Assembly (NCBI GenBank): GCA_964016885.1
Contig: OZ024765.1
Location: 11,470,001 to 11,534,000, forward strand
DNA length: 64,000 nucleotides
Direction of reading: 5' to 3'
Origin: Eledone cirrhosa
Taxonomy: Eukaryota
The notes below the pieces were generated by a model that was not told the DNA's origin, did not search any database, and saw nothing but the letters and a program-made list of their open reading frames with translations. Positions 1,370-59,103 of the stretch are shown here, in pieces (position 1 is the first letter of the stretch; every line of letters starts with the position of its first letter). A program made the translations under genes and the position numbers.

Positions 1370-3270
1370 GCTGGTGCAGTAGTCCTCAAATGCCCCTTGT
1401 AGGGCAGAGTCCTCAAACACTCCCTTTAGCAGGTTCTGAAAGAAGCAACCATCTCCAACTGATTCAGCTAGATCCCCAAGCAAGACCAGCCAAGCTCATG
1501 GATGTTATCCAACCATCTTGCTTGAGGTAGTTTACCCCTGCATCTCCTGCTGGTTGGTTTTGCCCATAAAAATCTGTCCAGCAATTCTTTCCTGAGACAT
1601 TCTAACCACATGTCCATTGTATCAGAGCTGTGATCTCTCAATTCAGAGAAGTAGCAGCTCTACCTGGAATGACTCTCTGATCTCTGAGCTACAAATCTGT
1701 CCAGCAATTCTTTTCTGAGACATTCTAACCACATGTCCATTGTATCAGAGCTGTGATCTCTCAATTTAGAGAAGTAGCAGCTCTACCTGGAATGACTCTC
1801 TGGTCTCTGAGCTACAAATATCTCCAGCAATTCTTTCCCGAGACATTCTAACCACATGTCCATTGTATCAGAGCTGTGATCTCTCAATTCAGAGAAGTAG
1901 CAGCTCTACCTGGAGTGACTCTCTGATCTCTGAGCTACAAATCTGTCCAGCAATTCTTTCCTGAGACATTCTAACCACATGTCCATTGTATCAGATCTGT
2001 GATCTCTCAATTCAGAGAAGTAGCAGCTCTACCTGGAATGACTCTCCGATCTCCGTGCTACAAATCTGTCCAGCAATTCTTTCCTGAGACATTCTAACCA
2101 CATGTCCATTGTATCAGAGCTGTGATCTCTCAATTCAGAGAAGTAGCAGCTCTACCTGGAGTGACTCTCCGATCTCCGTGCTACAAATCTGTCCAGCAAT
2201 TCTTTCCTGAGACATTCTAACCACATGTCCATAGTATCAGAGCTGTGATCTCTCAATTCAGAGAAGTAGTAGCTCTACCTGGAGTGACTCTCCGATCTCC
2301 GTGCTACAAATCTGTCCAGCAATTCTTTCCTGAGACATTCTAACCACATGTCCATAGTATCAGAGCTGTGATCTCTCAATTCAGAGAAGTAGCAGCTCTA
2401 CCTGGAGTGACTCTCTGATCTCCGAGCTACAAATCTGTCCAGCAATTCTTTCCTGAGACATTCTAACCACATGTCCATTGTATCAGAGCTGTGATCTCTC
2501 AATTCAGAGAAGTAGCAGCTCTACCTGGAATGACTCTCTGATCTCTGAGCTACAAATCTGTCCAGCAATTCTTTCCTGAGACATTCTAACCACATGTCCA
2601 TTGTATCAGAGCTGTGATCTCTCAATTTAGAGAAGTAGCAGCTCTACCTGGAAAGACTCTCTGATCTCTGAGCTACAAATCTGTCCAGCAATTCTTTCCT
2701 GAGACATTCTAACCACATGTCCATTGTATCAGAGCTGTGATCTCTCAATTTAGAGAAGTAGCAGCTCTACCTGGAATGACTCTCTGATCTCTGAGCTACA
2801 AATCTGTCCAGCAATTCTTTCCTGAGACATTCTAACCACATGTCCATTGTATCAGAGCTGTGATCTCTCAATACAGAAAAGTAGCAGCTCTACCTGGAGT
2901 GACTCTCTGATCTCTGAGCTACAAATATCTCCAGCAATTCTTTCCTGAGACATTCTAACCACATGTCCATTGTATCAGAGCTGTGATCTCTCAATTCAGA
3001 GAAGTAGCAGCTCTACCTGGAATGACTCTCTGATCTCTGAGCTACAAATATCTCCAGCAATTCTTTCCTGAGACATTCTAACCACATGTCCATAGTATTG
3101 GAGCTGTGATCTCTCAATTCGGAGAAGTAGCGGCTCTACCTGGAGTGACTCTCTGATCTCCGAGTTACGCACGTTATTGAGTAATGTTACTCCAAAGACC
3201 CTTCGGAGGAATCCCATTTTGGCTGCTTGTATTTATAATCCTATTCTTTTCGTCATTATCCACGATTCAT
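1370..3270 (-). mobile_element. Rex3/Expander-like RTE LINE 3' fragment, inactivated, with internal tandem array
   Basis: Minus-strand translation MGFLRRVFGVTLL..VRNSEIRESLQVEPLLLRIERSQL..YGHVVRM matches the recalled Rex3/Expander C-terminal motif (EPLLLRIERSQLRWxGH); stop codons in the repeated units. Confidence 0.85.
1571..3165. repeat. 123-bp tandem array, 13 copies
   Basis: GAGACATTCTAACC recurs at 1594, 1717, 1840 ... 3070 with exact 123-bp spacing. Confidence 0.95.
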
Positions 3271-7515: not shown

Positions 7516-7549
7516 TAACAAATGGAAACTATATTTATAAAACCATATT

Positions 7550-7614
7550 TATTTCATTATACATATTTCAAGGACACCAAAGCAAATTATGGTGCGCTTT
7601 CATCAGATAAAATA
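7550..7614 (-). ncRNA. Type I hammerhead ribozyme motif, family B
   Basis: tattttat-CTGATGA-aagcgcacc..ggtgtcctt-GAAA-tatgtat-A-atgaaata: 8-bp stem I, 8-pair stem II with one C/C mismatch, near-palindromic minimal stem III, AUA triplet. Confidence 0.7.
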
Positions 7615-7754: not shown

Positions 7755-7819
7755 TATTTTATTTGATGAAAGTGCACCATAATTTGCTTTGGTGTCCTTG
7801 AAATATGTATAATGAAATA
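7755..7819 (+). ncRNA. Hammerhead family B copy with C3>U core change (TTGATGA)
   Basis: Inverted partner of 7550-7614; same stems, mutated core. Confidence 0.55.
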
Positions 7820-7951
7820 AATATGGTTTTATAAATATAGTTTCCATTTATTAATATATTGTATTTTTACTCCAAAAAGTTGTTGAGTGCTTTATATCAG
7901 TTATAAAAATATTTGCTTGTTGTATCCCAACAATTTAAATATAACTTTTAC

Positions 7952-12270: not shown

Positions 12271-13906
12271 TTTTCATCCTTACAGGGTCGATAAAATAAA
12301 GTACCAGTAATACACTGGTTAATAGCTGGCCTTGTGCCAAAAGTAGAAACAATTATTATTATGCTGAGGTTAACTTTGCTTTCATCCTTACAGGGTCGAT
12401 AAAATAAAGTACCAGTAATACACTGGGGTAATTACTGGCCTTGTGCCAAAAGTAGAAACAATTATTATTATTATGCTGAGGTTAACTTTGCTTTCATCCT
12501 TACAGGGTCGATAAAATAAAGTACCAGTAATACACTGGGTAATTACTGGCCTTGTGCCAAAAGCAGAAATAATTATTATTATTATGCCGAGGTTAACTTT
12601 GCTTTCATCCTTACAGGGTCGATAAAATAAAGTACCAGTAATACACTGGGGTAATAGCTGTCCTTGTGCCAAAAGTAGAAACAATTATTATTATGCCGAG
12701 GTTAACTTTGCTTTCATCCTTACGGGGTCGATAAAATAAAGTACCAGTAATACACTGGGGTAATTACTGGCCTTGTGCCAAAAGTAGAAACAATTATTAT
12801 TATTATGCCGAGGTTAACTTTGCTTTCATCCTTACGGGGTCGATAAAATAAAGTACCAGTAATACACTGGGTAATTGCTGTCCTTGTGCCAAAAGTAGAA
12901 ACAATTATTATTATGCTGAGGTTAACTTTGCATTCATCCTTACGGGGTCGATAAAATAAAGTACCAGTAATACACTGGGGTAATAGCTGGCCTTGTGCCA
13001 AAAGTAGAAATAATTATTATTATTATGCTGAGGTTAACTTTGCTTTCATCCTTACAGGGTCGATAAAATAAAGTACCAGTAATACACTGGGTTATTACTG
13101 GCCTTGTGCCAAAAGCAGAAATAATTATTATTATTATGCCGAGGTTAACTTTGCTTTCATCCTTACAGGGTCGATAAAATAAAGTACCAGTAATACACTG
13201 GGGTAATAGCTGGCCTTGTGCCAAAAGTAGAAACAATTATTATTATTATGCTGAGGTTAACTTTGCTTTCATCCTTACAGGGTCGATAAAATAAAGTACC
13301 AGTAATACACTGGGTTATTGCTGGCCTTGTGCCAAAAGTAGAAACAATTATTATTATGCTGAGGTTAACTTTGCTTTCATCCTTACAGGGTCGATAAAAT
13401 AAAGTACCAGTAATACACTGGGGTAATAGCTGGCCTTGTGCCAAAAGTAGAAACAATTATTATTATTATGCTGAGGTTAACTTTGCTTTTATCCTTACAG
13501 GGTCGATAAAATAAAGTACCAGTAATACACTGGGTTATTGCTGGCCTTGTGCCAAAAGTAGAAACAATTATTATTATGCTGAGGTTAACTTTGCTTTCAT
13601 CCTTACGGGGTCGATAAAATAAAGTACCAGTAATACACTGGGGTAATAGCTGGCCTTGTGCCAAAAGTAGAAATAATTATTATTATTATGCCGAGGTTAA
13701 CTTTGCTTTCATCCTTACAGGGTCGATAAAATAAAGTACCAGTAATACACTGGGTTATTACTGGCCTTGTGCCAAAAGCAGAAATAATTATTATTATTAT
13801 GCTGAGGTTAACTTTGCTTTCATCCTTACGGGGTCGATAAAATAAAGTACCAGTAATACACTGGGTAATTGCTGTCCTTGTGCCAAAAGTAGAAACAATT
13901 ATTATT
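12271..13906 (+). repeat. About 110-bp tandem array (15 copies) of a Meta-domain-type SINE 3' half
   Basis: Unit CCGAGGTTAACTTTGCTTTCATCCTTACAGGGTCGATAAAATAAAGTACCAG...GCCAAAAGTAGAAAC(ATT)n; the same sequence is the 3' half of the SINE at 27302-27492 (-). Confidence 0.9.
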
Positions 13907-14258
13907 AATGTTCAATATAACCCATACGATGATGATGAAGATGATGGTGGTTGTTATGATGATGATGATGGCGGTGGTGGCGACGATGATGATGAAAATG
14001 ATGATTGATGATGATGATGATAGAGGTTGTTATGATGATGATGATGATGGTGGTGGTGGTTGTACATTTTGTTATTTTGTTGATGTAATCAAACTTGGAT
14101 AATGAGATAATGCTGTCTTACCTGCGGCACAGGTGAGATATGCAATCAAACAAAGAATGTAAAATCCATCCCCACCACCACCACCCATACCATCATTTGT
14201 TTTCCCACATTTAAAAAAAAATTTTATTTAATTTTTAATATTAAGAATTTATGTAAGC

Positions 14259-18187: not shown

Positions 18188-18745
18188 CCTCCACCCCATC
18201 CACACCGCCCCTTTCAATGTAAAGTTATGTTGGTCCCACAACATCCAGGCCGAAACAAATGAGATCGTGTAGGTGTCACGACAAAAAAACACACAGTCCA
18301 CGCTGTAAATGTGGCCGTGTAGGCAACACGGTAAAAACCTCCCAGCCCCACACTGTAAATGTGGTTGGTGTTAGGAAGGGCATCCAGCTGTAGAAAACCC
18401 GCCAGACAGTCCACGCTGTAAATGTGGCCGTGTAGGCAACACGGTAAAAACCTCCCAGTCCCACACTGTAAATGTGGTTGGTGTTAGGAAGGGCATCCAG
18501 CTGTAGAAAACCTGCCAGACAGTCCACGCTGTAATGTGGCCGTGTAGGCAACACGGTAAAAACCTCCCAGCCCCACACTGTAAATGTGGTTGGTGTTAGG
18601 AAGGGCATCCAACTGTAGAAAACCCGCCAGACAGTCCTATGCGAGCAAGACAACCACTCTTGCCTCAAGTGGGAAAACCCCCGTCCAAACCCATGCAAGT
18701 GTGGAACACAGACGCTAAACCTGATGATGATGATGATGATGATAT
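18188..18745 (+). mobile_element. Composite SINE-body element with 3 x 113-bp internal repeats
   Basis: ACAGTCC at 18293, 18406, 18519 and 18631; (GAT)n tail; near-identical inverted copy at 36198-36850. Confidence 0.85.
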
Positions 18746-21748: not shown

Positions 21749-21764
21749 TAGATATACAAATATG

Positions 21765-22930
21765 TAGGTAACACGGAAAAAACCTCCTAGTACACACTGT
21801 AAACGTAGTTGGTGTTGGGAAGGGCACCCAGCCGTAGAAAACCCACCAGACGTGTAGGTGTCACGACAATAAAACACACAGTTAACACTGTAATGTGGCT
21901 GTGTAGGTAACACGGTAAAAACCTCCCAGTCCACACTGTAAATGTGGTTGGTGTTGGGAAGGGCACCCAGCCGTAGAAAACCCGCCAGACGTGTAGGTGT
22001 CACGACAATAAAACACACAGTCCACACTGTAATGTGGCCGTGTAGGTAACACGGTAAAAACCTCCCAGTCCACACTGTAAACGTGGTTGGTGTTGGGAAG
22101 GGCACCCAGCCGTAGAAAACCCGCCAGACGTGTAGGTGTCACAACAATAAAACACACAGTCCACACTGTAATGTGGCCGTGTAGGTAACATGGTAAAAAC
22201 CTCCCAGTCCACACTGTAAACGTAGTTGGTGTTGGGAAGGGCACCCAGCCGTAGAAAACCCGCCAGACGTGTAGGTGTCACAACAATAAAACACACAGTC
22301 CACACTGTAATGTGGCCGTGTAGGTAACACGGTAAAAACCTCCCAGTCCACACTGTAAACGTGGTTGGTGTTGGGAAGGGCACCCAGCCGTAGAAAACCC
22401 GCCAGACGTGTAGGTGTCACAACAATAAAACACACAGTCCACACTGTAATGTGGCCGTGTAGGTAACATAGTAAAAACCTCCCAGTCCACACTGTAAACG
22501 TAGTTGGTGTTGGGAAGGGCACCCAGCCGTAGAAAACCCGCCAGACGTGTAGGTGTCACAACAATAAAACACACAGTCCACACTGTAATGTGGCCGTGTA
22601 GGTAACACGGTAAAAACCTCCCAGTCCACACTGTAAACGTGGTTGGTGTTGGGAAGAGCACCCAGCCGTAGAAAACCCGCCAGACGTTTAGGTGTCACAA
22701 CAATAAAACACACAGTCCACACTGTAATGTGGCCGTGTAGGTAACACGGTAAAAACCTCCCAGTCCACACTGTAAACGTGGTTGATGTTGGGAAGAGCAC
22801 CCAGCCGTAGAAAACCCGCCAGACAGTCCAGTCCTGAGCAAGACAACCAATCTTGCCTCAAGTGGAACAATTCCCATCCAGACCCATGCTAGTGTGGAAA
22901 ATGGACGCTAAACGATGATGATGATGATGA
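21765..22930 (+). repeat. 139-bp tandem array (about 7.5 copies) inside a SINE body, ending in the SINE tail
   Basis: Units and ORF ends spaced 139 bp apart (22244, 22383, 22522, 22661, 22800); last unit continues into CAAGACAACC..GGACGCTAAAC(GAT)n. Confidence 0.9.
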
Positions 22931-23033: not shown

Positions 23034-24040
23034 GTCTTTGGAGTAACGTTACTCTATAGAGTGCATAGCTCGGAGATCAGAGAGTCACTCAAGGTAGAGC
23101 TGCTACTTCTTTGAATTGAGAGATCACAGCTCTGATACTATGGGCATGTGGTTAGAATGTCTCAGGAAAGAATCGCTGAACATATTTGTAGTTCAGAGAT
23201 CAAAGAGTCGCTCCACATAGAGCTGCTACTTCTCCAAATTGAGAGATCACAGCTCTGATACAATGGACATGTGGTTAGAATGTCTGAGGAAAGAATTGCT
23301 GGACATATTTGTAGTTCAGAGATCAAAGAGTCGCTCCACATAGAGCTGCTACTTCTCCAAATTGAGAGATCACAGCTCTGATACTATGGGTATGTGGTTA
23401 GAATGTCTCAGGGAAGAATCGCTGAACATATTTGTAGTTCAGAGATCAAAGAGTCGCTCCACGTAGAGCTGCTACTTCTCCAAATTGAGAGATCACAGCT
23501 CTGATACTATGGGTATGTGGTTAGAATGTCTCAGGGAAGAATCGCTGAACATATTTGTAGTTCAGAGATCAAAGAGTCGCTCCACATAGAGCTGCTACTT
23601 CTCCAAATTGAGAGATCACAGCTCTGATACTATGGGTATGTGGTTAGAATGTCTCAGGGAAGAATCGCTGAACATATTTGTAGTTCAGAGATCAAAGAGT
23701 CGCTCCACGTAGAGCTGCTACTTCTCCAAATTGAGAGATCACAGCTCTGATACTATGGGTATGTGGTTAGAATGTCTCAGGGAAGAATTGCTGGACATAT
23801 TTGTAGTTCAGAGATCAAAGAGTCACTCCAGGTAGAGCTGCTACTTCTCTGAATTGAGAGATCACAGCTCTGATACTATGGACATGTGGTTAGAATGTCT
23901 CAGGGAAGAATTGCTGGACAGATTTTACAGGCAAAACCAACTGGTAGGAGACCCAGGAGCAGACCCTGAGCAAGATGGTTGGATAACATCCCTGAGCTTG
24001 GCTGGTCACACTTGGGGATCCAGCCAGATCAGTTGGAGAC
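23034..24040 (+). mobile_element. Rex3/Expander-like RTE 3' fragment with 123-bp x7 array
   Basis: GTTAGAATGT at 23151, 23274, 23397, 23520, 23643, 23766 and 23889; flanks are homologous to the reverse complement of the flanks of 1571-3165. Confidence 0.88.
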
Positions 24041-28435: not shown

Positions 28436-28762
28436 TCATCATCATCATCATTTTTACGTCCGCTTTTCCCTGCTTGCAAGGGTGGGACGGGAACTGATTC
28501 TGGCTTGATGCCCTTTCTAACACCAACCTCATTTACAGTGAGTGCTGGGTGCTTTTTTTGCCGTGGAACCTCCACGACCACTTTGCAGTGGAATGATAGG
28601 GACCCCAGTCCCTATCATCTCATTTCTACAGCTGAGTAAACTGGAGCAATGTGAAATAAAGTGTCTTGCTCAAGGAAACAACACATCACCCAGTCTGAGA
28701 ATTGAACTCACAACCTTTCGATTGCAAGGCCAATGCTCTAACCACTAAGCCATGTGCTTCCA
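28436..28762 (-). mobile_element. Young tRNA-derived SINE
   Basis: Reverse complement of the 4763-5102 family. Confidence 0.9.
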
Positions 28763-29906: not shown

Positions 29907-29992
29907 GTAGGTCCCAGGTTGAGTCGGGGATAACCACAGTAAGTAAGGTACTCAATACATGGCAGAGTAAAATATATTTATTGTATAGAAGG

Positions 29993-30043
29993 AGCTTCTA
30001 CAGGACTAGAACTGTTTCATTCAGATGAAATCTTCAGGAAGCT
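29993..30043 (-). ncRNA. Type I hammerhead ribozyme, family A
   Basis: agcttc-CTGAAGA-t.ttc(atct)gaa.t-GAA-ACAG(ttctagtc)CTGT-A-gaagct; GUA triplet. Confidence 0.8.
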
Positions 30044-30296
30044 GGGTGTCATATTAAGTTCTGGTATTTATACATTTAGGTAGTGGTAAGTGAGGGGTGG
30101 TGGCTGGGGGGGGGGGGGGGGGGGGGGATTTTGGGTAGGTTGGTATTTAGATACAGAGGACCATAACATGGCACACACCGTTTTTTCTTTGGGGAGTGGT
30201 CAATTAGCCGGAGTGCTTTTGTAAAATAGTAGTGGTAGTGGTGGTGGTGGTCCTAAATGTATAAATGTATAAATACCAGAACTTAATATGACACCC

Positions 30297-30347
30297 AGCT
30301 TCCTGAAGATTTCATCTGAATGAAACAGTTCTAGTCCTGTAGAAGCT
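30297..30347 (+). ncRNA. Type I hammerhead ribozyme, family A
   Basis: Exact inverted copy of 29993-30043; predicted cleavage 3' of A30341. Confidence 0.8.
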
Positions 30348-30358
30348 CCTTCTATACA

Positions 30359-34790: not shown

Positions 34791-35072
34791 TGCTTGGTGG
34801 TCACCAATCAGTCCAGCTCGTTTGTCTACCAACATATCATGAAAAAATTATACATTTTCTATGTAGTTTATCTGAGTAGAACATGTTCTGCTCTATGTTG
34901 TCCATAAACCTTTGCGTCTCCAAAATATGTATAATGAAATAAATAGAGATGATATAAAGTATATATCTTTCGTTTATTACTATTATTATTGTATATATAT
35001 ATATATTTTGCGAGTGTAAACTCGGCCGACAAAAAAGATATATATATATGTATATATATATAAGTATATATA

Positions 35073-35130
35073 TGTCTGATGAAAACGTACTTAAACACCA
35101 TTGTACCTTTGAAATATGTATAATAAAATA
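35073..35130 (+). ncRNA. Hammerhead motif, family B relative, stem I eroded
   Basis: tgt-CTGATGA-aaacgtac..gtaccttt-GAAA-tatgtat-A-ata; stem II differs in sequence from 7550-7614 but still pairs. Confidence 0.55.
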
Positions 35131-35173
35131 TATATTTTGATTATGAGAATATTTTTCATTTATTAACATTTTG

Positions 35174-35904: not shown

Positions 35905-35943
<39 letters not shown>

Positions 35944-36026
35944 GTTATTCCGGGTTGAATCGGAGGTAACCACAGTAAGTAAGGTACTCAATACATAGCA
36001 GAGTATAACAGTTTTAATATAGATGA

Positions 36027-36075
36027 GATTCTACAGGACTAGAACTGTTTCATTCATTTGAAATCATCAGGAATC
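36027..36075 (-). ncRNA. Type I hammerhead ribozyme, family A
   Basis: gattc-CTGATGA-t.ttc(aaat)gaa.t-GAA-ACAG(ttctagtc)CTGT-A-gaatc. Confidence 0.8.
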
Positions 36076-36120
36076 CCTGATGATTTCAAATGAATGAAAC
36101 AGTTCTAGTCCTGTAGAATC
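36076..36120 (+). ncRNA. Family A hammerhead copy with stem I 5' strand lost at the inversion junction
   Basis: Core and stems II/III intact; upstream GAATCC pairs with GAATC at only one position. Confidence 0.6.
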
Positions 36121-36133
36121 TCATCTATATTAA

Positions 36134-36197: not shown

Positions 36198-36850
36198 TCA
36201 TCAGGTTTAGCGTCCGTGTTCCACGCTTGCATGGGTTTGGACGGGGGTTTTCCCACTTGAGGCAAGAGTGGTTGTCTTGCTCGCATAGGACTGTCTGGCG
36301 GGTTTTCTACAGCTGGATGCCCTTCCTAACACCAACCACATTTACAGTGTGGGGCTGGGAGGTTTTTACCGTGTTGCCTACACGGCCACATTACAGCGTG
36401 GACTGTCTGGCGGGTTTTCTACAGCTGGATGCCCTTCCTAACACCAACCACATTTACAGTGTGGGGCTGGGAGGTTTTTACCGTGTTGCCTACACGGCCA
36501 CATTTACAGCGTGGACTGTCTGGCGGGTTTTCTACAGCTGGATGCCCTTCCTAACACCAACCACATTTACAGTGTGGGGCTGGGAGGTTTTTACCGTGTT
36601 GCCTACACGGCCACATTACAGCGTGGACTGTCTGGCGGGTTTTCTACAGTTGGATGCCCTTCCTAACACCAACCACATTTACAGTGTGGGGCTGGGAGGT
36701 TTTTACCGTGTTGCCTACACAGCCACATTTACAGCGTGGACTGTGTGTTTTTTTGTCGTGACACCTACACGATCTCATTTGTTTCGGCCTGGATGTTGTG
36801 GGACCAACATAACTTTACATTGAAAGGGGCGGTGTGGATGGGGTGGAGGT
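36198..36850 (-). mobile_element. Inverted copy of the composite SINE-body element, 4 x 113-bp repeats
   Basis: Reverse complement of 18188-18727; identical ORF start MHGFGRGFSHLRQEW. Confidence 0.85.
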
Positions 36851-41028: not shown

Positions 41029-41715
41029 GTAAATAGCAGCAGAATGGAGAATCAAACCAGGAGACTGATAAGCCACACCAAATTTTAAATGCCTATAACA
41101 CAACATTCTGTCAATTCTTTCCAGCAACCTCCCATCATTAGCCATACCATCTGTATCAGGTGTCTTCAACTTGCAGGTCATGTCATGAAAGGCAATGAAC
41201 CTGCTGCAAAACTTTTACTATAGGAACCCACTAAGGTGAAATGCAAACGTGGAAGAACTCTTAAGACATTCAAGAGAGCCATTGAGGAAGATACAGAATT
41301 ATCTGGTGAAGAACCGAGGTAGAAAATGCTGGATTGTGTGAGTGAGATAGTAAGGTTTTATATCATGTCACCACAAAGATATAGAACTACTTGGTGAAAA
41401 ACTGAGGTAGTAAATATTGGGTTGTGTGAGGTGGAAATGTTTAATCATGTCACGACAAAGATACAGAACTATCTGATGAGGAATTGAGGTAGTTAACAGT
41501 GGATTGTGTGAGGTGGAAAGGTTTTGTGTCACCACAAAGAAGTGGATGAATTTAGTAGTAGTAGTAGTATATATATATATATATATGTGAGTTTAACAGT
41601 AGCTATGATGCTTCCATAGACGGTATGCCAGTTGAGCACTCTATGTTCTTACAGAGCAGAGTGTGATATAATATAAAACGAAAAATCAGTGATGCATCTG
41701 GACTCAATTTATTGT

Positions 41716-41803
41716 GTGTTACAATTGTTTCACCAGCAGACAGCTCGAGACGCGATCATTGTGTGGATCTGTCTGATTCTGGAACTGCAGGTTCGTCGGA
41801 CAC
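41716..41803 (-). ncRNA. Hammerhead-like motif, family C (CCGACGA core)
   Basis: gtgt-CCGACGA-acc..cagacag..ctgtctg..ggt-GAA-ACAATTGT-A-acac; palindromic stem III, GUA triplet. Confidence 0.6.
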
Positions 41804-41855
41804 TTCCAATAACTTCGGAATAATGCCAAAGCGTCAATTTTACTAAGCTTCCACT

Positions 41856-41960
<105 letters not shown>

Positions 41961-42071
41961 GAGAGCCGTTATTTGATGCAAATAACACGTGATTTCGCCC
42001 TACTCTGGGCAGCGTGTATATTAGCTTTCTCTCTATCCATGAGGTTAGATGTGTCGTGAACAGTGTCCACA

Positions 42072-42148
42072 TTTACTGACTGAGGATCCTGTGACCTGTT
42101 ATACTTCACATATCAGTGGTGAAACGAAGCGAGATTCGTATCAGCAAA
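42072..42148 (+). ncRNA. Type I hammerhead ribozyme, family D (canonical core)
   Basis: tttactga-CTGAGGA-t.cc.tgtga..tcaca..gg.t-GAA-ACGAA(gcgaga)TTCGT-A-tcagcaaa; predicted cleavage 3' of A42140. Confidence 0.8.
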
Positions 42149-42384
42149 CTTATAGTTATAAGGTTGGTAATTTAAAACTCTAATTCAGAGATTTGATTCT
42201 GACTTAGTTTTTTTCTATTTAATTGCTAAACCTGTAGATATTGTTCTCTATACACTAACGGTAAAACTCACTTGTAATAATTCTTTACACACATCTCACT
42301 GTATAACACACTTCTCTTTGTGTAATATATTTGTATATATACATATATATATTTGGAGCCTACTTTCCAAGATAAAAATCTGAC

Positions 42385-42500
42385 ATGGACACCGTCCAAT
42401 GCAATTTATGCTCAGAAGAAACGATCCAGATGCTGTTTGCAAAGGACCAATTGTTAAACTAAAAGGATGAACTTGTTACCTCATGTAAACTCAGAATATA
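42385..42500 (+). pseudogene. Penelope-like GIY-YIG endonuclease C-terminal remnant
   Basis: QCNLCSEETIQMLFAKDQLLN*KDELVTSCK resembles the recalled PLE motif CxLCxxEKxxI..LLNKRxE..C; in-frame stop. Confidence 0.65.
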
Positions 42501-42682
42501 TAGGACATATCTTACCTTCAAACCCCTCATGACCCAGGTGGGTAGATCTCGGCTTTCTCTCCTTCCCAATTACAAACTAAGATAGAAGAAACCCCAAGCA
42601 TACTTAGGTAGAAATAGAATTTTTTCTTTGTCATTTACACATTCTAATTATACTTAAGCGGACCTTTGTAAATATATATATA

Positions 42683-42720
<38 letters not shown>

Positions 42721-42758
42721 CAAAGATCCACCTAAGTGTAATTAGAATGTGTATATAT

Positions 42759-42795
<37 letters not shown>

Positions 42796-42817
42796 CATAA
42801 ATATATATATAATATAC

Positions 42818-42893
<76 letters not shown>

Positions 42894-43386
42894 CACTCAT
42901 ATCATGTTAACCATTTTGTGACTATATTTTTATGTTCCTCGTGTTTCTATTGAAATATTCTGTCTATAGATTTCAATTAATTTGAAAAATAATCAATAAT
43001 TTTTGTTTGTTTGTGTGTTTGTGTGTATATGTGTCTGCAAGCACTCGCCTGCATGTGTTTCATGTGTGTATGGGAGTGTTGTGATAATAAATTAATAGAA
43101 TTTTATCATTATTATTAAAATGGTATTTGGTACAAGAATGAATATAAAAATAATATATTATTTACATTAAAATATATATATTAAAAAAAATATATATTAA
43201 AAAAAATATTTAATTTTATTTAATTTAAATATAAATATTTCAGAAACTGGCTGTTTTTGTATTGGAGAAGCAGAAATGGTCATAGTCTGGGTGGTATGAC
43301 AAATGTTGACCAGCAGAAACCTAATGACTCCATTCACACAACATTGAGATTCTTATTCGAGATTATATATTAAATATGAAGGTTTT

Positions 43387-44974: not shown

Positions 44975-45138
44975 TACACGTTATTCCGGGTTTACTCTAA
45001 ATATAAATTATAGCTTTAAAGAATTAGCTTTTAATGAATTCCCTTTTCTACCAACCAAATACCTCTACCCATCCCACTCCCTACCCTCTCCTACCACCCG
45101 AAGAGGCCTATAAATACCATATTTATTTTTTGATACCC

Positions 45139-45189
45139 AGATTCCTGATGATTTCTAAAGAATGAAATAGTTCTAGTCCTGTAGAATCT
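45139..45189 (+). ncRNA. Type I hammerhead ribozyme, family A
   Basis: agattc-CTGATGA-t.ttc(taaa)gaa.t-GAA-ATAG(ttctagtc)CTGT-A-gaatct; U.G wobble in stem III. Confidence 0.75.
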
Positions 45190-45248
45190 CATCTATATTA
45201 AAACTATATATATATATATACATACATATATATATATTTGCATATATG

Positions 45249-50829: not shown

Positions 50830-51082
50830 AGGCACATGGCTTAGTGGTTAGAGCATTGGGCTTGCAATCAAAAGGTTGTGAGTTCAATTCTCAGACCGGG
50901 TGATGTGTTGTTTCCTTGAGCAAGACACTTTATTTCACATTGCTCCAGTTTACTCAGCTGTAGAAATGAGATGATAGGGACTGGGATCCCTATCATTCCA
51001 CTGCAGAGTGGTCGTGGAGGTGCCACGGCAAAAAAGCACCCAGCACTCAGGACGTAAAATGAAATGATGATGATGATGATGA
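50830..51082 (+). mobile_element. Young tRNA-derived SINE with internal deletion
   Basis: Jumps from CAGCACTCA to GGACGTAAAATG. Confidence 0.88.
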
Positions 51083-58860: not shown

Positions 58861-58951
58861 AATATATATACATATATATATATATAATAATATATACATG
58901 TATATATATATACACATGTATCTATATATTAATTTATTCAATATAGAAATG

Positions 58952-59000
58952 GCTTCTACACGACTAGAACTGTTTCATTCGAGGGGAATCATCAGGAAAG
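58952..59000 (-). ncRNA. Degenerate family A hammerhead
   Basis: ttc-CTGATGA-ttcccctcgaat-GAAACAG(ttctagtc)GTGT-A-gaag; mismatches in stems II and III. Confidence 0.5.
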
Positions 59001-59103
59001 ATTTGTGTTTGTATATATATATATATATACACATATATATATGTACATATGTTTATAAAAATATATATATATATACATATACATATGTATATATATATAC
59101 ATA

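Follow-up and report, generated by a model that had tools for sequence, protein, structure and literature searches.

The 64,000 nucleotides of Eledone cirrhosa DNA analysed here (assembly GCA_964016885.1, contig OZ024765.1, positions 11,470,001 to 11,534,000; hereafter the window) are repeat-rich animal DNA with many TA tracts. One TA-rich region of the window contains two short islands on the same strand. Island H carries a candidate hammerhead ribozyme, and island E carries a remnant that resembles the end of the endonuclease of Penelope-like elements (Table 1). Here, we describe the two islands and their copies, compare them with related loci, and ask whether they belong to one element or to two.

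Table 1. Features of islands H and E and of the TA-rich DNA around them (positions in the window)
Feature	Positions	Strand	Remarks
(TA)n tract bounding the region on the left, likely the target of insertion	41862..41960	.	TRF, period 2, 49.5 copies
Island H, present in multiple copies, likely a 3' end (truncated 5') of a Hydra-type family	41960..42323	+	
ESRYLMQ, likely the last conserved codons of H's own endonuclease	41961..41981	+	
Type I hammerhead	42072-42148	+	candidate ribozyme in island H
Stem I, 5' strand	42072..42079	+	7/8 paired with 42141-48
Hammerhead core CUGAGGA (DNA CTGAGGA)	42080..42086	+	descriptor and covariance model
Helix II domain	42087..42120	+	34 nt, U.U at base
GAAA (42121-24), helix III and GUA site	42121..42140	+	predicted cut 3' of A42140
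Stem I, 3' strand	42141..42148	+	pairs with 42072-79
Short TA-rich tract between the islands	42324..42352	.	masked as repeat 42324-42358
Start of island E, W-box WSLLSKIK at 42354	42351..42399	+	out of frame with the rest
Endonuclease C-terminal CxxC-E-N-CxH	42400..42492	+	stop at 42460-62, Leu for His
Rest of island E	42493..42672	+	frame open to TAG 42583-85, then about 87-90 nt to TA
Inverted copy (42 bp) of the end of island E, beyond a TA/TG tract	42715..42756	-	

The motif in island H has the CUGANGA core, the GAAA and the NUH site of a type I hammerhead, with helices I, II and III surrounding the core, helix I open and helix II irregular. The sole mismatch of stem I is A42075 x C42145, and helix III consists of 5 bp, including A15.1-U16.1, with a loop of 6 nt. 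The initial annotation had reported an intact core, a 5-bp stem III and seven of eight pairs in stem I, and all of these are indeed found, beyond the expectation from shuffled DNA. Descriptor searches recovered six hammerhead cores in the window, where shuffled windows averaged 0.08, and none of 60 shuffled windows equalled the combination of a 7/8 stem I and a 5-bp helix III. Moreover, a covariance model (R1) of 27 hammerheads from related elements matches exactly these boundaries with 19.4 bits and an E-value of 0.009, as one of eight matches in the window with E < 0.02, all of these E-values being rough. Rfam gave no hammerhead family at gathering score in the 64-kb window and no hammerhead among the 38 matches at E<=10 in 41500-43000. 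The folding energy of the motif is unremarkable (z-score -0.32; 70 of 200 shuffles as good).

To call this hammerhead canonical, as had been proposed, is a little generous: the core, the GAAA and the site bear the description out, but helix II has a U.U at its base, and its domain spans 34 nt, against 10-25 nt in relatives. We considered the U.U as a sign of decay and rejected that explanation, because the feature is common within the clade (12 of 30 hammerheads of related elements, and 14 of 26 Hydra rows, counted by eye, in the table of Craig et al. 2021, PMC8557442); its frequency there points to a family trait. The spacing from the GAAA to the cleavage site is 14 nt, against 6-8 nt in 30 of 30 relatives, and the same 14-nt spacing is seen in the commonest hammerhead family of the window.

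In the predicted fold of the island H copy, the pairs of helix III have probabilities of 0.70-0.74, and 42079-83 pair with 42113-17 at 0.5-0.6, which traps the core. The active fold has a share of only about 1e-5 in the window copy, under a fold model that ignores the core and tertiary contacts. By this modelling, the window copy is predicted to misfold and would cleave poorly. Other copies differ from it within the motif. Position 42075 is G in 24 contigs of sequencing run X1 (2519 of a depth of 2532) and in 23 of 25 reads of run X8, which restores stem I to 8/8, and position 42114, within the core-trapping segment, differs in seven contigs of other copies.

Several further hammerheads and repeats lie elsewhere in the window. 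A second hammerhead family has six copies, at 29991-30045(-), 30295-30349(+), 36024-36078(-), 36069-36123(+), 45137-45191(+) and 58949-59003(-), with TA-bounded ends, a helix III of 4 bp and an 8-nt loop; in its two head-to-head inverted pairs, the left copy bears an additional tail, as in Penelope-like insertions. A third, AT-rich family is found at 7545-7614(-), 7755-7824(+) and 35068-35140(+), the copies at 7.5-7.8 kb forming an inverted pair. Just upstream of the left TA tract, the TA-bounded island 41588-41861(-) contains a hammerhead-shaped motif at about 41716-41805 with one core mismatch, a very long helix II and a small palindromic helix III, which neither model R1 nor the descriptors matched. 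Near-identical partial tRNA-like matches at 28691-28754(-) and 50837-50894(+) are likely SINE heads, and high-identity tandem arrays of 110-140 bp units occupy 1570-3168, 12272-13907, 18293-18637, 21763-22824, 23066-23925 and 36288-36744, some of them apparently made of SINE-like pieces.

Islands H and E are both multi-copy in the sequenced organism A, and their copies were taken from four of ten sequencing runs, X6 contributing a single piece. Many diverged contigs and reads cover island H, and a single 267-nt piece is collinear with 41963-42229 despite 44 differences. The summed depth is highest at 42272-42319, several-fold above the rest of the island. Upstream loose ends at 42278-79 are mixed, and the last 45 nt of H are common to many more copies or families. 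Two opposite-strand joints within H resemble those of inverted truncated copies of Penelope-like elements. The hammerhead island is single in the window rather than tandem, and no end-to-start joint is found among the joints listed. From core to TA, H measures 244 nt, against 44-146 nt in seven relatives with TA after the core.

The first codons of island H read ESRYLMQ, which a profile of 53 distinct tails following CxH placed at rank 20 of the 127,954 six-frame 7-mers of the window; the match is seven residues long and had been spotted by eye before the profile test, so that the test is post hoc. If this heptapeptide marks an endonuclease end, the H core sits 158 nt after its own LN-equivalent, the range in relatives being 137-518 nt and the distance in three of them (loci L007, L011 and L021) 158-162 nt. 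Judged from these sequence features, island H likely opens with the end of its own, different endonuclease.

The relatives used throughout were fetched with a degenerate LN..E..CxH pattern, which yielded 120 of about 520 loci. The upstream CxxC..E, for which there was no selection, is present in 78 of the 120; the other 42, which include several broken copies and some unrelated proteins, were left out of the position counts. Long frames with RDD occur in 10 of the 120 loci. In eight aligned relatives, two of them without the N-terminal part, the reverse transcriptase, linker and endonuclease motifs are as in Hydra elements, with RWK, DKT, a CxCx5C linker and no CCHH. Among the 78 loci, 29 contain a total of 30 hammerhead cores at 137-518 nt downstream of LN, none of the 44 loci with at least 500 nt of DNA upstream of LN has a core within that distance, and five cores lie 2213-2269 nt upstream of LN, ahead of full-length frames. 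The window core lies 374 nt upstream of island E's LN. By descriptor, a canonical core was found in only 26 of the 57 relatives having at least 300 nt downstream.

Two of the full-length Hydra-type relatives have ribozyme-shaped motifs in which the helices are good but the core is variant: L043 at 208 nt after LN, with the core CAGTGGA, and L044 in its 3' region, with a core that by eye is shortened. These variant cores are possibly natural variants or possibly the result of decay. Also by eye, a short motif centred on GAGCACT follows the ribozyme in L011, L021, L049 and L053, and something like it occurs in the window at 35940-36010 and 41625-41660, possibly as part of a terminal tail.

Island E is flanked by TA on both sides, and contigs are collinear with it from 42418 to 42656. 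The inverted copy matches 42633-42674 with 86% identity (E 5e-9); since the end of E is thus repeated in inverted form across a TA tract, its terminus likely lies at about 42672. Rfam miRNA matches near 42636-42753 are below the gathering score and track this TA inverted repeat. Model R1 found no match in island E, and neither model nor descriptor found a canonical hammerhead there. A relaxed descriptor picked out a weak hammerhead-like motif at 42583 that has two core mismatches and starts with the stop codon TAG; its hairpin (42591-42609) lies between GAxGA and GAAA, and the whole is unconvincing as a hammerhead. The window copy of E is without the region that would hold RWK, DKT and the CxCx5C linker.

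The peptide of island E had been described as a Penelope endonuclease remnant on the same strand as the ribozyme, past a short TA tract. It does read in frame from 42400 as written, beyond TA-rich DNA, and shows CxxC, E and N; its start lies 252 nt past the ribozyme's end, so the 240 bp first given is an approximation. An HMM built from 50 distinct endonuclease ends (55 of the 120 loci qualified) matched only the 42400 site among 1710 window tiles, with an E-value of 7e-6 against 0.68 for the next best, a test that is partly circular because the loci were chosen on the LN..E..CxH motif. An HMM of the upstream part only ranks the same site first, with E 0.3. The W-box is independent of that selection and the stronger check: a profile of 49 W-boxes placed the one at 42354 at rank 1 of 127,948. 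Its distance to the first Cys is 46 nt, against 48 nt in 51 of 58 relatives, and its position and frame indicate that the remnant starts where the TA tract ends and contains a frameshift. In other copies, the stop codon at 42460-62 reads Lys (56 contigs) and the Leu that replaces the His of CxH is His (59 contigs), and among 40 of 151 rows of variant positions, the 13 that fall in 42400-42492 include eight synonymous changes and two that give motif residues.

Could the peptide be a chance match, or part of a protein unrelated to Penelope-like elements? Pfam returned no family for either of two versions of the peptide, and a word-index protein search with it found nothing, which is weak evidence. 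Pfam likewise gave any match for only one of ten long relatives (a weak GIY-YIG, E 5e-4), and since it is silent on nearly all of them, it evidently does not see this clade. Single E-values in a tblastn search of the window with 101 further endonuclease relatives are modest, the best being 1.6e-4, but 36 of the 39 matches fall at the E site. Together with the independent W-box at the expected distance and with the synonymous bias and motif residues of the other copies, this largely refutes the idea of a chance or unrelated match, to which we give almost no credence. The HMM, the W-box, the clade motifs and tblastn agree with the original identification: on the sequence evidence, the reading frame at 42400 preserves the C-terminus of a Penelope-like endonuclease that has the motifs of the Hydra clade.

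How does this remnant relate to the hammerhead next to it? The annotation had offered family E as the possible autonomous partner of the ribozyme, so that H and E would form one element, in which a terminal repeat precedes a body with an internal deletion. The two islands do share a strand, are separated by 252 nt and both belong to the Hydra type, the hammerhead precedes the reading frame in full-length relatives (five loci), and E has no clear ribozyme of its own. The terminal repeat of Penelope-like elements is a copy of their 3' end (PMC8557442), however, so in a single element H should recur after E's stop, and neither self-comparison nor alignment finds it there. Alignments of H with E gave scores of 20 and 18, where shuffled sequences averaged 19.5, and the 3' ends of the two show no relationship, 91 of 300 shuffles scoring as high. 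A TA tract separates the islands, and the nine joints listed all stay inside one island, none linking the two, although the contigs continue for 49-207 nt beyond the aligned end of E or start a median of 92 nt ahead of 42400. The likely tail of H differs from that of E, and the core lies neither after E's frame nor a full frame length upstream of it. With the order wrong, no shared sequence, no joint and a likely endonuclease tail of H's own, the proposed partnership is not supported, and we regard a single element as very unlikely. A depth gap at 42344-42391 adds little because the TA tract is masked. Comparisons of both islands with the upstream island 41588-41861 showed no similarity, and the DNA of the three islands gave nothing real against the 120 loci (best E 0.065).

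Perhaps H is instead a discrete non-autonomous unit, a solo terminal repeat or something retrozyme-like, moved in trans by a Hydra element that might be family E. Its 5' part is collinear with the ribozyme in three organisms, pieces from runs X5 and X6 extend as far as 41960, both ends show increased depth, and animal retrozymes have been proposed to derive from such repeats (bioRxiv 10.64898/2026.07.22.740005). Position 41960 is also the edge of the compared stretch, however, so no fixed start follows; moreover, the window holds no tandem arrangement of H, and the start of H resembles a coding tail. If family E were the mover, the unrelated 3' ends would be out of keeping with the non-autonomous Chlamys elements, which generally share 3' ends with their partners (PMC8557442). 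We consider a unit of this kind unlikely. The best explanation, which we hold with good confidence, is that H and E are 5'-truncated 3' ends of two different Hydra-clade Penelope-like families in the same TA microsatellite, and the pairing is likely ordinary genome debris. This reading is drawn from remnants, the full-length parents of H and E not being among the recovered sequences. The caveat attached to the original proposal, that the two were separate insertions into one TA region, is thus the likelier reading.

Published features of the clade suggest how such a pair could arise. In Hydra elements, CxxC and CxH flank the conserved E and N, (TA)n serves as the target, and a hammerhead lies near the 3' end (PMC8557442). 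A Hydra-type endonuclease would nick (TA)n, and reverse transcription would start at the RNA 3' end and usually stop early, so that short 3' ends accumulate in TA tracts. Insertions are often 5'-truncated, tandem or inverted, as written of Naiads but as typical of the group (PMC8557442). Island H would be one such end, comprising the last endonuclease codons, the ribozyme and a terminal stretch; in an active parent of H, the ribozyme would cut the transcript after GUA. Island E would be the end of another family, broken off at about the conserved Trp of the endonuclease. Repeated targeting of one TA tract would then place short 3' ends of different families side by side, and the third TA-bounded island, at 41588-41861 on the minus strand, may be another such end.

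Much of this is already in print. Penelope-like repeats are known to carry hammerheads, isolated motifs have been attributed to truncated copies, TA targeting has been described, and one published Hydra family with a hammerhead comes from an octopus (Hydra-1_Obim of Octopus bimaculoides; PMC8557442). The proposed tie between the window's ribozyme islands and Penelope-like elements holds to the extent that the hammerheads are of the type that such elements carry, a link that had been published before. Literature searches, judged by titles and abstract openings, gave nothing on the H or E families, which may stand in repeat libraries; hammerheads are not mentioned in the relevant passages of PMC13282606, and the supplements of bioRxiv 10.64898/2026.07.22.740005 list four invertebrates that may bear on novelty. 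H and E are probably two uncatalogued families of a described clade. The one small difference of note is that helix III of H is longer than in its relatives.

The locus as it stands matters little, beyond accounting for the ribozyme islands of the window, which it explains as ends of truncated retrotransposons within TA tracts. It is conceivable, although we doubt it, that the Hydra-type families of this lineage have hammerheads whose helix III is long and closed and which cleave as monomers, whereas the minimal motifs described for animal Penelope-like elements depend on dimers, and that family E exchanged its canonical core for a variant or lost its ribozyme, against the published statement that every Hydra family has one (PMC8557442). 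The purpose of the hammerhead in Penelope-like elements is unsettled in print (PMC8557442, PMC4209133). Should motifs with a long helix III prove to cleave as monomers, the role of the hammerhead in the replication of animal Penelope-like elements could be studied with them in a simple setting.

Among known systems, the Hydra clade is the closest. Island E shares with it, and with Hydra-1_Obim, the CxxC-E-N-CxH arrangement, the same N-to-E and E-to-C spacing, and the TA flanks, while its CxxC-to-LN distance is one residue shorter than in most relatives (locus L003 is equally short). Island H has the type I hammerhead near its 3' end and the helix II U.U found in about half of the families (PMC8557442). 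By eye, however, neither island matches the published endonuclease end and ribozyme of Hydra-1_Obim, which makes them other families, and in contrast to the elements of the clade, only short remnants are present here. Naiad, Neptune, Poseidon and Nematis share a GIY-YIG endonuclease, and Naiads also target TA, but these elements have an internal CCHH finger, the terminal CxxC/CxH being called peculiar to Hydra, and Naiads are further described as having an N-terminal endonuclease and no canonical hammerhead (PMC8557442). Non-LTR retrozymes resemble H in being short non-coding units that carry a type I hammerhead and are related to the terminal repeats of Penelope-like elements, yet they are defined by tandem units each with a ribozyme (bioRxiv 10.64898/2026.07.22.740005), whereas H is single and likely has a coding tail at its start. 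Finally, the hammerheads of metazoan Penelope-like elements share with H the type I topology; they too occur mostly as single motifs, which are interpreted as belonging to truncated elements (Cervera and De la Pena 2014, PMC4209133). Their helix III is minimal or small and palindromic, and they are thought to work as dimers, while variants with a large helix III are known from fungi and protists (PMC4209133). With its 5-bp helix III and 6-nt loop, the hammerhead of island H is thereby closer to the fungal and protist variants.
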